Of a stretch of 64,000 bases of DNA, positions 2,701-61,532 are shown piece after piece. The notes under the pieces were generated by a model, which was not told where the DNA came from, searched no databases, and saw only the letters and a list, made by a program, of their open reading frames with translations. Location: positions 35,712,001 to 35,776,000 of the forward strand of contig OZ024746.1 of the NCBI GenBank assembly GCA_964016885.1, written 5' to 3'. Both the position numbers and the translations under genes were made by a program. The DNA is from Eledone cirrhosa (lineage: Eukaryota). Each line of letters opens with the position of its first letter. Position 1 is the stretch's first letter.

Positions 2701-2890
2701 AGGAGGTGTGGTAAGGATCCTGATGGACCATAAAGCACCAGAGTACTCAATACTTAGGGTAGTAAAGTGGGTAATAGGAAAAGGTTTAACCCCGACGGCA
2801 GAGCTCTAGCCGTTTCGACGGCTTTTTCTGGACTCGAGAAATAGCCTTCGAAACGGCATGAGTTCTGACGTCGGGGTTAAACTTTTTCAT
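2701..2890. mobile_element. family Z mini-element with terminal fold-back (half hammerhead)
   Basis: Inverted repeat ~2778-2888 (aaaaggtttaaccccgacg.../...cgtcggggttaaactttt). Homologous to 52350-52554 and 34939-34997. Confidence 0.8.
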
Positions 2891-3299
2891 ATATATATAT
2901 ATATATATATATATATATATATATAGATAGATAGATAGAGAGAGAGAGAAAGAGAGAGAGAGATAGAGAGATATAGATAGATAGAGAGATAGATAGATAG
3001 AGAGAGAGAGTGAGAGAGAGAGAGAGAAAATAAGTCAAAATCTCCACCGCGATGCCAAGGCGTCGCTGTATATTTTTTGTCTTCCTATGCTTCTTCCTAT
3101 TCTTAGAGTACTCTACTGAATTGTCGCCCATTCCTTCTCAACACTGCGCACTATATACACGTGTTAGTGTGTGTGTGTATGTGTGTGTGTGTGTATGTGT
3201 ATGTGTGTGTGTGTGTGTGTGTGTGTGTGTGTGTTTGTGTGTGTGTTTGTGTGTGTGCGTGTGTTTGTTTGTGTCTGCGTGTGCAGAGGCAAAATATTA

Positions 3300-3486
3300 A
3301 TAATTGTTTCTACTTTTGTCACAAGACCAGCAATTATACCCGTGCATTACTGGTACTTTATTTTATCGAACCTGTAACGATGAAAGGCAAAGGTAACCTA
3401 GATGAGATTTGAACTCAGAACGTAAAGTGCCATAGCTCTATTCTGTACAGCATTGACGCTCTACCGACACTGCCAATTCACCGCCA
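3300..3486 (-). mobile_element. tRNA-derived SINE family 1 (CORE-like, resembles octopus OR-type SINEs)
   Basis: Minus strand has tggcagtgtcggtagagc (A-box-like), gagttcaaatc (B-box-like) and gcctttcatc...gttcgataaaataaagtaccagt. At least 7 copies in the window. Confidence 0.8.
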
Positions 3487-4289
3487 TATAATAATAATAA
3501 TAATAATAATAATAATAATAATAATGATAAGAAGAAGAAGAAGAAGATAAGGGAAGTAGACGCACGTGGTGGATAGAAGCTCATGAAATCGCTCCCGTAA
3601 GTTTTTGAATTTTAACATATTTAAATCAATTATGAAATAACAATTCTTAGTACAAATGATACATAAAGCACCAGACTCAAGTCTCATAAAATTCGGATCC
3701 ATAATATCCTGTTATATCGCTCAAATATTTAATTTTGTATTATACATTTTATAGTCAAAAAAGAAAATGGTTATGAATGGAAGAAAACCCCCTCTGTCTA
3801 CACTATATAGTACAGCCAAATAACAGCAATTACACCAACACCACAAACTAGACACACCACCTACCCCATCACCCCTCTGTGTACAGTAAATACAACAGCC
3901 AGATAACGGCAGTTTCACCACCACCACCACCAATCCCAGCATAATAATAATAATTACTATTATTATTGTCTCAAGTTTTCATAAAATGTTTAATTCCAAT
4001 ATTAAAGGAATATTTCAACGTATATATTAAACATACGCGACAAACGCATAGATACACAGATCAAACAAAACTACAGTCTATTCAACAAAACTCAGTAACG
4101 ACAACGCCATCACTATAGTCACCGCCGCCACCACTCCATACATCATTGCTACCACTATCCCATCACCGCCGCCACCACTCCTTCATTGCTACCACCACTA
4201 TTCCCCCATTACTTTCTGTTAACTTAAGAAAGGGGAAGGTGGCGGTATCACTAGACAAGGGAGAGGCTAGCAAAATATATAAATTGATT

Positions 4290-7255
4290 GACTTAGTGAC
4301 CCGGCCACCGGCCAAACGTCAACGACTATGGCACTGCTGGCTCCCCCCTTCCCCACCAACAACAGAAAAAGCCCCAGCACCAACACCGACATAGCCAACA
4401 ACAATAACAGGCAACTTCAGCAAAAAGTATATTATATTATTAATAATTCATTCTTAAGCCACGCAATGCTCACATTAAGGAAACACTCATAATAATAACA
4501 ATTTAAAAAAACAACAAAAAAGAAAACCCCGTGACCAAGAAATACCGGGATGGCGGCCGGCGGGGAATAGCCGTGTCTCTAGGAGAGGACGACCCCTCTA
4601 GTCTTGGTTGACACTCGTCCTAGAAATGGTAACGCGAAATGATTACCACTTGGCGGATAAGGATAAAACGCGACAAAATAAAGTAAATGTCTAATGATAA
4701 AATCTCATACCGGATCGGCCGTCACCCGGGTCAAAAAGGACCGCGTCCCTCAGAGAAGAACCAGACTGGGGTCGAAAAATCAGCTAATGGTTCAAACCTT
4801 CCCAGACTTCGGAGCTAGAGACCTCCCATAACCGGAATACTCCTACTGTTGGCCCTCCATGCTCACCACCAAGAAATCCAAAGAAAAAGAGAGAAAAATG
4901 GTCAAGGGAAGATAATAAAGAAGTCCTTGAGGCTTTCTACACTGCCATGTAGTATCCATAAAACACATCGAATACAGAACAGACATATATCAACTGGAAA
5001 AAGAAACATCCCGAAAACAGAGGCTATATTGACAGTAACAAACTAGCCAATATTCGAAGAAATATTGTAAAAAAAAAGTTACTAACTCTTATAGACATTG
5101 ATCAGATCAAGCTATTAGCACAAAGTCAGCGAAGGGAAAATGAAACATGTGTCAGTGGAAACGAGGTAAATTGTAACACTTCGAATCCCAGGGTTGGGGC
5201 GGAATCACTGACGACAGAACAAATTAAAGAAAGGAGCGAAAAAGTGGTGGGAGTGCATGCTCAAGATGAAACTCAAAATGAAAACAATGAGATCGTAAAT
5301 GATAAAGAAATGAATGAGAATGAACTTGCCAACTTGAAGGATGAAATTATGATCGAATGGATGAAAATGAAAGAATCTGACATGGGGGAACGAGACACCC
5401 TCCCTAAGATCCAGAACTCCAAACAGAACCAAAAGATAATACACAAGGCTCAAATACATAATTCTCAAAAACATTATCATCACAAACAAACTAAACATTA
5501 CTGATTTAAATCATCTTTATTATGCATCGGCTAAAGTCACCGCTCACTTATGTGGAGTGAAGATGAAAAAACAAAGGAATTCCCACAAGAAATCTACTTG
5601 GCAAGAGAACATCAATCGCCAAATAAACCTTCTCCGATCTGACATAGAAATTTTAACAAACTATAAAGTAGGTGAACATGTTAAACAAACTAAACTTAGA
5701 AAATTGAAAAGAAAGTACAGTATAAAATCAACAAGTGACATAGACATGCTGATAGAAATAAACAAGCAAAAAGTGTCGGCCAAATCTGCTCGTATAAGGC
5801 GCTTTGAAAAACGATCTAGATTCTATAAGGACAATAATATGTTCAAAAACAACCAAATACACTTCTACAGAAAAATTGGTAAGTCAACAATAACTGCTAA
5901 ATCAATACCACCCAAAGGAGGAAGTGCAAGAATTCTGGAAAAAGATCTGGGTCGAAGAAAAAGTTCATAATATACATGCCCCATGGATAGACAGACAAAT
6001 GAAAGATACAGCTCACCTTGAGGAACAAATATGGGAAAATATAACAGTTGAACAGTTGCGTTTGGTTCTAAGAAAAACCAGCAAATGGAAATCCCCAGGA
6101 AAAGACAAAATACAACATTTTTGGATAAATGCCTTCACAGAGTCTCATGAACTGTTATCCCAACTTTGGAATGAAATAGTTAAGGAGCCAGAAAATATAC
6201 TATCGTGGCTAGTTAACGGCATTACATTCCTGCTTCCGAAGAATGATGAGACAAACAATCCCCAAAAGTACAGACCGATAACTTGCTTGACACAATGTAT
6301 CAAATTTTAACATCAGTCCTAACTGAATATACATATGAACACCTGATAACAAATGATCTATTTCCCAATGAGCAGAAAGGGTGTAAACGAGGCTCATATG
6401 GCTGTAAGGATCAGCTTTTGGTTAACAAAATGATACTGGAAGATTGTCATAATAGACACAAAAATCTATCAATTGCTTGGATAGATTATAAAAAAGCATT
6501 CGATAGCTTGCCACACAGTTGGATTGAAAAATGTTTAGAGATTTTCAAAGTATATCCCGTTGTCAGGAGGTTCCTGTCATTCAGTATGAAGACATGGAAA
6601 ACGACACTCCTTTTGAATAGTGAAAATATCACTGGAAGCTGGAGAAGTTAATATTAATTGTGGAAATTTTCAGGGTGACTCTTTATCACCGCTTTTATTC
6701 TGCATCGCACTTATACTATTGAGTAAAATGCTCAATGAAACAAAACATGAATATAAAGTCTATGACAAAACCATTAATCCCTTGTTCTACATGGATGACC
6801 TGAAACTATTTGCAAAAAATGATGAACAATTGCAGTTCAGTGATGACATTAAAATGGAGTTTGGACTAGATAAATGCGCCAAAGCAACGTTCACCAGGGA
6901 AAAGCTGCTGAAAATGTCAGACATTAATCTTGATCGGGGGAATTTGATAAGAGAACTTGATTAAGAGGAAACTTACAAATATCTAGGTGTTTGTGAAGGA
7001 GACGGAATGAAGCACTCGACAGTGAGGGAAAGGATAAGTAAGGAATGTTACCGCAGAGTAAGAGCAATCTTAAGAACGGAATTGAATGCAAATAATAGGA
7101 TCAATGCCATAAATACGCTTGCCATACCAGTAGTAAACTACAGTTACAATGTCATCAACTGGTCAAGCACAGAGTTCCGTATACTTGATACAAAAATTAG
7201 AAAATTCTTAACCATGCACAGAATGCATCACCCTAAGGCAGATACAGATATAATA
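4290..7255 (+). mobile_element. R4/Dong-like non-LTR retrotransposon, frameshifted and 3'-truncated
   Basis: Consecutive ORF pieces: KWSREDNKEV, WKSPGKDKI, KYRPITCL, PNEQKGCKRGSYGCKDQLL, AWIDYKKAFDSLPH, FQGDSLSPLLF, FYMDDLKLF, FGLDKCA, HHPKAD. Confidence 0.9.
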
Positions 7256-60899: not shown

Positions 60900-61152
60900 T
60901 AAATAATAAAATCGGAAGGCTCATTTGGCCGGTGCTTATCCCGGTTTTATGGCGTGACACGACTGAGAGTACAAGACCCCCACCTGGATAGGACACAAGT
61001 CCATCGCAGGGTTAATCCCCCAGCTATTGCTGGTACTCATTTTCAGCTGAGTGTACTGGAGCAACGTGAAATTGAGTGTTTTGATTAACAACACGTCACG
61101 CAACACATGAAATGAACCCATGACATTATGATCGTACCACTACGCCACGTGT
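60900..61152 (-). mobile_element. SINE family 2
   Basis: gctggtactcattttcagctgagtgtactggagcaacgtgaaatt. Confidence 0.75.
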
Positions 61153-61311
61153 ATACATATATATATATATATATATATATATATATATATATATATATAT
61201 ATATATATATATATATATATATATATATATATATATATATATAAATATATATATATATATATATATATACATATATATATATATATATATATATATATAT
61301 AGAGAGATGAG

Positions 61312-61413
61312 ATTCTACAGGACTAGAACTGTTTCATTTTTTAGAAATCATCAGGAATGTGAGGGAATTCCTGATGATATCTAAAGAATGAAACAGTTCT
61401 AGTCCTGTAGAAT
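61312..61413. ncRNA. two back-to-back family K hammerheads (- 61312-61358; + 61367-61413)
   Basis: ATTC CTGATGA tatctaaagaat GAAA CAG ttctagtc CTG TA|GAAT and its inverted copy 8 bp away. Confidence 0.8.
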
Positions 61414-61532
61414 CTCATCTATATTAAAACTGTTATACTCTTCAATGTATTGAGTACCTTACTTACTGTGGTTACCTCTGATTCAACCCGGAATAACGTA
61501 TATATATATATATATATATATATATATACAAA

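Follow-up and report, generated by a model that had tools for sequence, protein, structure and literature searches.

Head-to-head fold-backs of Penelope-like elements in Eledone cirrhosa mostly pair one long with one short end, consistent with priming from both target ends

A stretch of 64,000 nucleotides from Eledone cirrhosa (assembly GCA_964016885.1, contig OZ024746.1, positions 35,712,001 to 35,776,000 of the forward strand; hereafter the window, numbered from its first letter) raises the question of how palindromic repeats arise in which two copies of one family are joined at their 5' ends, with the 3' ends facing outward. The window is 34% GC and rich in (TA)n tracts, within a genome of 3.0 Gb. 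An initial annotation had described eleven such fold-backs and proposed that both ends of a break in a self-complementary (TA)n tract or cruciform prime reverse transcription (RT), after which the two cDNAs are joined. The fold-backs are read here as 5'-truncated insertions of Penelope-like elements (PLEs) that were primed from both target ends and whose cDNAs were then joined, an explanation to which we assign a probability of roughly 70%. The observations behind it are the identity of the parent elements, the polarity of the arms, the pairing of one long with one short arm, arms that are not nested, fixed 5' stops with an excess of G, and junctions with microhomologies or insertions. Priming from both target ends and joining of two cDNAs are favoured by the pairing, the non-nested arms, shared variants, the extra G and junctions of an end-joining type, whereas a cruciform or break healing is not needed for the fold-backs, since the parents encode a GIY-YIG endonuclease and a Penelope-like protein cuts and extends both strands in vitro (PMC11167929).

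Polarity was surveyed in 99 evenly spaced 10-kb stretches of the genome (0.99 Mb, loci L031-L129) with a library of 13 families, counting same-family neighbours no more than 700 bp apart. Neighbours joined directly, with no TA between them, are head-to-head in 57 cases, tail-to-tail in none and tandem in 6; neighbours with TA between them are head-to-head once, tail-to-tail 7 times and tandem 10 times. In family A, start-to-start fusions number 1,730 across the genome, as against one fusion of long ends and none of short ends within 8-10 nt, and a library-free tally by hand has about 22 insertions with the inverted partner upstream of the ribozyme and 3 with it downstream. The head-to-head rule seen in the window is therefore real and extends beyond it. 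Tracts of (TA)4 or more stand at 94 of 114 outer ends (background 7.5%), and TA adjoins 174/225 3' ends and 26/225 5' ends. No difference in TA tract length was detected between long and short ends, so the idea that RT makes the TA tract gains no support. Among the Logan contigs listed for one public run, for which the library type is not on record and whose sample may equal that of the assembly, at least 15 family A joints occur, with variable long-arm stops, and a run from a second organism contains loose contig ends that read as the inverted arm. The presence of joints in independently assembled contigs rules out the artefact of assembly against which the initial annotation had warned.

The 3' ends of each family are bimodal, lying at about +100 and +188 from the ribozyme core in family A, +60 and +128 in K, and +97 and +189 in B; the difference is a tail, 26-95 nt in length, whose presence on exactly one arm is nearly obligatory. 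Loci of A, B and K were picked via the tail for the pairing counts, so that junction positions were unselected; a first set of A loci (30/30 fold-backs) had been retrieved with a query that contained a junction, and this biased set was excluded from pairing and stop-position counts and retained only in the flank and end surveys. A long and a short arm are combined in 60 of 66 young pairs of A, B and K, in 46 of the 50 pairs with definable ends in the random sample (7 of the 57, including F1 and F10, have none) and in 9 of 10 pairs of family E, which was held out when the rule was derived. At tail-sampled loci, the inverted partner is short-ended in 20/20 detected cases in K and 18/18 in B; in A, 14 partners are short-ended and three long-ended calls are arms that read through into the open reading frame (ORF). 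For eight multi-kilobase inserts, a short far end was predicted before the sequence was retrieved: six had it, one stopped 14 nt ahead of the short site and another was interrupted.

The arms are not nested. Extension toward 5' is greater for the short arm in 26 of the A, B and K pairs and for the long arm in 6 (P=0.0005), with the two equal in 28, and in 26 of the 32 unequal pairs neither arm holds the whole of the other. No overlap at all is found in 5 of the 60 pairs and in several E pairs, where the long arm is tail only. This argues that both arms were copied from RNA, from opposite target ends. The two arms of an insertion also share variants in family A, diverging by 0.85% within insertions and 3.7% between them (0/2,000 permutations; 10 insertions). 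An arm that stops at the fixed start is never paired with one that runs past it (26 and 2 concordant pairs, 0 mixed; 10/9/0 in a hand tally of A that includes long inserts), which points to priming of both arms on the same pseudo-long terminal repeat (pLTR) copy of one RNA. Against a complete partner, the long arm has stalled in 15 cases and the short arm in 2; truncation is one-sided, opposite an exactly complete partner, in 17 pairs and two-sided in 12. Ten of 14 tails have an ACUC..GAGU hairpin motif after the short site.

The initial annotation had treated the families as small elements in their own right. Judged from sequence, A, B and K are instead the pLTR ends of 4-kb autonomous PLEs. 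Locus L220 consists of a pLTR of family A, an ORF of 808 amino acids and a second A pLTR, the upstream copy reading through into the ORF, and long copies followed upstream also reach ORFs in K (L227) and B (L035, L231). The A element is 4.0 kb long, and its long end has 10,770 exact copies in the genome. Pfam recognises none of the A, B or K ORFs, RVT_1 misses the A ORF, and a sequence search of solved structures returned nothing useful, so that a fold search was required. The AlphaFold model of the A ORF (predicted local distance difference test score 81.6) has telomerase TERT as its top PDB match (E 6.7e-8), and a profile of the ORF matches an RT-GIY-YIG ORF of the window that Pfam does recognise, at a probability of 95%. 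The RT residues D273, MG and YRDD are invariant in 27/27 aligned proteins, as are Y688, Y701, G703, R712, H716, E773 and N786 of a C-terminal GIY-YIG domain in the same ORF; 2 of the 27 match the Pfam GIY-YIG model. Among proteins, a single named relative was found, from Argonauta. Telomerase-related RT, GIY-YIG, partial-tandem pLTRs, an inverted 5'-truncated copy and a one-sided tail are all features of PLEs, and the pLTR carries a predicted type I hammerhead with a palindromic helix III that fits the published description (PMC4209133).

Family A appears by its motifs to match the Hydra clade. The ORF has R47 W48, followed at position 49 by I here and by K in 21/27 proteins, and D133 K134 T135; the cysteines C667, C669 and C675 (a CxCx5C linker) and C767, C770, C795 and H797 (CxxC and CxH flanking E and N) are invariant. 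No conserved cysteines lie between Y688 and Y701, so the CCHH motif, with its two cysteines inside GIY-YIG, which is canonical for Neptune, Poseidon and Nematis, is absent. Hydra-clade elements with a C-terminal endonuclease are described with the same single RT plus GIY-YIG ORF, RW(K) and DKT motifs, lack of CCHH, CxCx5C linker, CxxC/CxH around E and N, pLTR hammerhead and (TA)n insertion, and molluscs are among their hosts; that account has few families, generally under 3 kb, against the 4.0 kb and 10,770 exact long ends of A, and unlike the present analysis its accessible part gives no long/short pairing or mechanism (PMC8557442). Between the RT and the endonuclease of the L220 ORF, residues 589-663 are a low-confidence insert rich in asparagine and serine that recalls the N-rich linkers of rotifer Penelope elements (PMC3846280).

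The 5' stops are fixed for each family, at -69/-70 from the ribozyme core in A, -4 to -6 in K and -81 to -88 in B, the K stop lying about 30 nt below a TATAAATA box. We infer transcription to begin at this fixed stop. In hand tallies of the first 100 of 459 B matches and the first 100 of 3,407 A matches, the base before the stop, where it is not genomic C, is G in 38 and 39 arms, respectively; at a control position one base further up it is G in 11 and 7 (excess P about 1e-5). An extra G is a mark of RT copying the 5' cap, known from work on long interspersed nuclear elements (LINEs); the template is therefore likely to be a capped sense transcript.

Junctions had been said to fall in or just upstream of the ribozyme, which holds for K and Z; the stops of A and B cluster 70 and 81-88 nt upstream. 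Cleavage by the ribozyme was considered as the cause of the junctions and rejected, given that 109 A arms begin at the cut site, about 3% of the 3,407 that begin at the fixed stop upstream. The 109 exceed the 25 at one control position, a weak excess that is confounded by AT microhomology, and among the first 100 listed about 15 are small deletions in intact ribozymes. The proximity of junctions to the ribozyme instead reflects a likely start site near it. Twelve symmetric fusions in the genome, each listed twice, are centred exactly on the A cut site and are a possible trace of cleavage in vivo, with the same confounding by AT microhomology. Transcript direction was given by a descriptor of the type I hammerhead (CTGANGA plus GAAA, with stems I and III paired), which has 80 matches in the 0.99 Mb sample and one in the same DNA reversed. 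Intact minimal hammerheads at about 80 per Mb in L031-L129 extrapolate to roughly 240,000 genome-wide; at the Rfam gathering threshold, none are found in the window.

Inserted bases, some of them locally templated, are present at 33 of 50 junctions. The initial annotation had suggested a search for junction microhomology, and of the 17 junctions without insertion, 11 overlap by at least 2 nt, where about 20% would be expected by chance; the joints resemble those of microhomology-mediated end joining. On the target side, the retrieved DNA contains no clean collinear empty paralogue for any of 77 and then any of 151 insertions, compared with 133 of 300 random control points, from which points near microsatellites had been left out; the inserts therefore avoid repeat bodies. 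Indirect evidence suggests that the insert-bearing TA tracts probably existed before insertion, and any target-site duplication would be masked by them. Between the long end and the TA, (AC)3-27 is found at 21 of 32 terminal B long ends, counted with a query that itself ended in ACAC, against 0 of 16 short ends (L160-L189), and an AC tract also follows 5 of 80 A long-end matches. It looks like telomerase-style stutter at initiation.

These observations can be arranged into the following sequence of events, of which several steps draw on in vitro work on another PLE. The element protein, acting as a dimer, would bind its own RNA at the hairpin between the two starts, and its endonuclease would nick both strands of a symmetric (TA)n tract. 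Each 3' target end would then prime a cDNA on a sense RNA that is likely capped, the two cDNAs beginning at the long and the short start, respectively, usually on a single RNA molecule. The enzyme at the long start would have to displace the cDNA from the short start, and hence may trail and stall more often. Both cDNAs would run toward the cap, and host end-joining repair, perhaps of the polymerase-theta type, would link their ends. Priming in the first pLTR of the RNA, 130-280 nt from its 5' end, would yield the tiny inserts, and priming in the second pLTR the multi-kilobase ones. A wider generalisation is possible, but is advanced only tentatively: two-ended integration on a single capped RNA by an asymmetric enzyme pair at the conserved hairpin may be the default of PLEs, the inverted pLTR and the one-sided tail being products of one event, with telomerase-like stutter of the RT writing new (AC)n at the long start. 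If so, part of the microsatellite that is read as target would be a product of insertion.

Several points weigh against priming from both ends on one RNA. Of the 225 sampled segments, 111 lie outside compact fold-backs. The pairing rule is broken by two long-long pairs (L224, L248) and by a short-short pair in the window (32975), and one pair joins two families, a long K arm to a short B arm (L106, 7170-7484), against 57 same-family pairs. Further cross-family head-to-head joints occur at L248 (a B-like short arm and an A tail tip) and at 52770-53038 of the window (E and K); such pairs indicate that two different RNAs can sometimes serve one insertion. Sharing of variants between arms is borderline in B (106/2,000 permutations), and in K the test is without power. 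Part of the G excess in A can stem from locally templated CATG insertions, and some of the 33 inserted junctions may be mismatches to the reference copies. Empty alleles were not found in four runs at L004, where contigs break at the TA. In vitro, the use of different start sites by the two strands of one molecule is not demonstrated in the accessible part of PMC11167929.

The alternative closest to the favoured explanation keeps priming from both target ends but supplies each end with a separate RNA, through an asymmetric complex with one subunit at the long and one at the short start. Cross-family pairs fit this arrangement, since L106 is still long plus short and L248 combines an A tail tip with a short arm that is B-like, and transcripts of one active locus would share variants too; however, arms from the first and second pLTR are never mixed, cross-family pairs are outnumbered 57 to one, and the stalling of long arms far more often than short ones (15 against 2) is what a common template predicts. 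We consider separate RNAs unlikely. A greater departure is endonuclease-independent healing, of which the proposal in the initial annotation is a variant: RT, starting at both ends, would patch (TA)n tracts that had broken spontaneously or been cleaved as cruciforms. In its favour, the inserts are strongly confined to TA tracts, and occasional inverted duplications of the flanks around TA suggest snap-back at broken TA ends, but the GIY-YIG domain of the parents is intact, with Y, G, R, H, E and N invariant, (TA)n targeting is already described for the Hydra clade (PMC8557442), and a related protein cuts both strands itself (PMC11167929), all of which make break healing highly improbable.

A further alternative is self-priming, in which an antisense transcript, as published for head-to-head palindromes (PMC3846280), or else the first cDNA folds back and copies itself, with deletions of the centre producing the asymmetry. 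It predicts both the shared variants and the concordant arm classes that are observed, and perfect CATATG fusions are common. It also requires nested arms, whereas 26 of 32 unequal pairs are not nested and tail-only arms exist; one-sided truncation exceeds two-sided (17 to 12), unlike random central deletion, and the extra G indicates a capped sense template. For these families we regard it as largely refuted, with only a very small chance of being correct. Scarcely credible is a preformed palindrome that moves as a whole, whether a miniature inverted-repeat transposable element (MITE), a fold-back DNA transposon or a master palindrome, or else an artefact of assembly. The TA flanks and terminal inverted repeats do resemble Tc1/mariner MITEs, and three B copies in the window have the same junction, but junctions vary by copy, the ends are asymmetric, sizes range from about 100 bp to more than 7 kb, pLTRs of RT elements make up the arms, and the joints recur in independently assembled contigs. 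Fixed symmetric termini and a constant interior, which mark a MITE or fold-back DNA transposon, were not found, and the diversity of junctions refutes this alternative.

In the window itself, fold-backs were located by self-BLAST with simple repeats masked, which recovered all eleven of the initial annotation, exactly at the positions it had given or no more than a few bases away, and their polarity was set independently from type I hammerhead cores or from the tail. The left arm had been said to read on the - strand and the right arm on the + strand: complete ribozyme cores agree in A, C, G and K, a CTGANGA..GAAA core confirms the + right arm in H and I, and in Z, which has no CTGATGA, the 3' half of the ribozyme, judged by eye, gives the same polarity. 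The outer ends mostly abut TA, as claimed, in about 17-18 of 22 cases by hand count; the others are the left end of G, where another element adjoins, both ends of K 38405, which are degenerate, and the right end of K 43845, cut by a B fragment. Head-to-head pairs beyond the original eleven are A 61530, B 44351, 56994 and 60150, E 24692 and 48595, and those at 20067, 22929 and 32975; three pairs are tail-to-tail, always with a TA tract between the arms. The features are as follows.

2711..2888: family Z fold-back; the arm on - (2711-2837) is the long one, with the tail, and the short arm runs on + to 2888; the two meet in ribozyme stem II.
10682..11057: family H fold-back; short arm on -, 10682-10816, long arm on +, 10831-11057; TA flanks both ends.
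11185..11603: family A fold-back; long arm on -, 11185-11426, short arm on + that begins at the fixed start (11431) after a G; ribozyme cores at 11371 (-) and 11500 (+).
20067..21172: inverted tail tip (-, 20079-20117) joined to two tandem pLTR copies (+) with TA at the end; ribozymes at 20252 and 20886; the classical build of a partial tandem with an inverted copy.
22929..23883: family F13 head-to-head pair; long arm on -, short arm on +, spacer of 633 bp.
23935..24512: family C fold-back; short arm on -, an additional 50-bp end piece, long arm on + with a 26-nt tail; ribozymes at 24098 (-) and 24323 (+).
24692..25014: family E; short arm on -, tail-only arm on +, with no overlap of the arms.
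29904..31198: family G fold-back; short arm on -, 29904-30246, long arm on + with a 540-bp upstream spacer; left end away from TA; an insert resembling a short interspersed nuclear element (SINE) in each arm.
32975..33208: family F5 fold-back; both ends short, breaking the pairing rule.
35145..35434: family I fold-back; long arm on -, short arm on +.
35551..35969: family A fold-back; two arms complete to the fixed start, fused at CATATG; (TG)7 separates the long end from TA (35537-35550).
38402..38570: family K fold-back; older, neither end with clean TA.
43842..43982: family K fold-back; a family B fragment cuts into the right arm.
44351..44592: family B; short arm on -, tail-only arm on +.
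45996..47903: Penelope-like ORF on -, with RT and GIY-YIG (Pfam RVT_1, GIY-YIG).
48595..48761: family E; short arm on -, tail-only arm on +.
52348..52553: family Z fold-back; long arm on -, short arm on +; TA on either side.
54036..56249: truncated element on +; an RT fragment (38% identity to the B-type ORF), then a family E pLTR with its short end at TA, which we infer to be one element.
56994-57235 and 60150-60398: family B; same build as 44351, short arm on -, tail-only arm on +.
61302..61498: family K fold-back; short arm on -, long arm on +; both arms end 4-5 nt upstream of the ribozyme core.
61530..61808: family A; the short arm on - is complete, the arm on + almost nothing but tail.

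The B inserts at 44351, 56994 and 60150, all within 16 kb, have one common junction, at which the tail arm stops at the base of the hairpin; this reflects either a stalling hotspot or local copying. Tail-to-tail palindromes that have a TA tract at their centre or lie to either side of an insertion (43994-44461, 23778-24655 and 62505-63000 in the window; L012, L018 and L217) duplicate the adjoining DNA in inverted form at 92-99% identity and form a class distinct from the fold-backs, possibly arising by snap-back synthesis at a broken TA end. In the G fold-back, the SINE-like repeat occupies the same spot in each arm (29930-30130 and 30900-31080); its two copies diverge clearly more than the 97-100% identical parts of the arms, and other G copies are without it, which suggests two site-specific insertions. 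The same repeat occurs in the L061 junction and next to a TATA box in L151. Other relics of the window, among 4962-7250, 15387-16205, 18436-20030, 45996-48557 and 48762-51520, include a broken LINE-type RT, a helicase fragment that we take from its motifs to be PIF1/Helitron-like, and further Penelope-like ORFs, one of which has two cysteines within GIY-YIG and so differs in clade from family A.

Among known systems, LINE-1 twin priming is also a process in which two target ends prime on one RNA and the inverted segments meet 5'-to-5', with microhomology or insertions at the joint; its second primer anneals at variable internal sites, its segments barely overlap and it accounts for a minority of inserts. 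The fold-backs, unlike these, have fixed starts, arms that usually overlap into a palindrome, and are a main outcome. PLEs with an inverted pLTR and a tail (PMC3846280; PMC8557442, Fig. 2; D. virilis Penelope, PMC2377424) likewise carry the inverted 5'-truncated copy at the 5' end, are most commonly head-to-head and have the tail at one end only; the published tail is 30-40 bp and optional, the present one 26-95 nt and all but obligatory on exactly one arm, and the explanations offered in the accessible accounts, antisense self-priming and endonuclease resolution of the tail, clash with the non-nested arms. PAc, a Poseidon element of Anolis, resembles the elements here in its cutting and extension of two strands, two internal RT starts that bound the tail and an AT-rich target; uncleaved ribozyme RNA is its main template and a dimer is predicted. 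Its clade differs from that of A, and the accessible part of the report leaves inverted repeats undiscussed, invokes ordinary second-strand synthesis and reports no homology at the start site, whereas the starts here lie in short UA-rich stretches (PMC11167929). Non-LTR (non-long terminal repeat) retrozymes are also short, non-coding, derived from PLE pLTRs and furnished with a type I hammerhead, but are head-to-tail tandem arrays, whereas the present repeats are head-to-head stumps of autonomous element RNA (bioRxiv 10.64898/2026.07.22.740005). That identity was rejected, since 57 pairs are head-to-head and 6 are direct tandems.

The architecture itself is known, and its members here are new and very abundant: the inverted 5'-truncated copy, one-sided tail and (TA)n targeting were described by Craig et al. 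2021, who call the PLE cycle undefined and the origin of the tandem and inverted repeats and of the tail unexplained (PMC8557442), and Arkhipova 2013 reported head-to-head as the most frequent layout and proposed antisense self-priming (PMC3846280). Frangieh et al. 2024 found that both strands are cut and extended in vitro and that two RT starts define the tail (PMC11167929); the accessible part of PMC6431247 contains nothing on mechanism. The literature search found no publication that states the long/short pairing or a two-ended model for PLEs, and it is these quantitative rules, with their consequences, that carry the value of the analysis. Thousands of young inserts per family make the architecture countable, and the rules so obtained, namely long plus short ends, non-nested arms and a G that is likely cap-derived, weigh against the published antisense self-priming model, tie the in vitro result of 2024 to genomic structure and render the mechanism testable. 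Tens of thousands of short palindromic repeats, which annotation would class as MITEs or unknowns, are likely to be PLE stumps.

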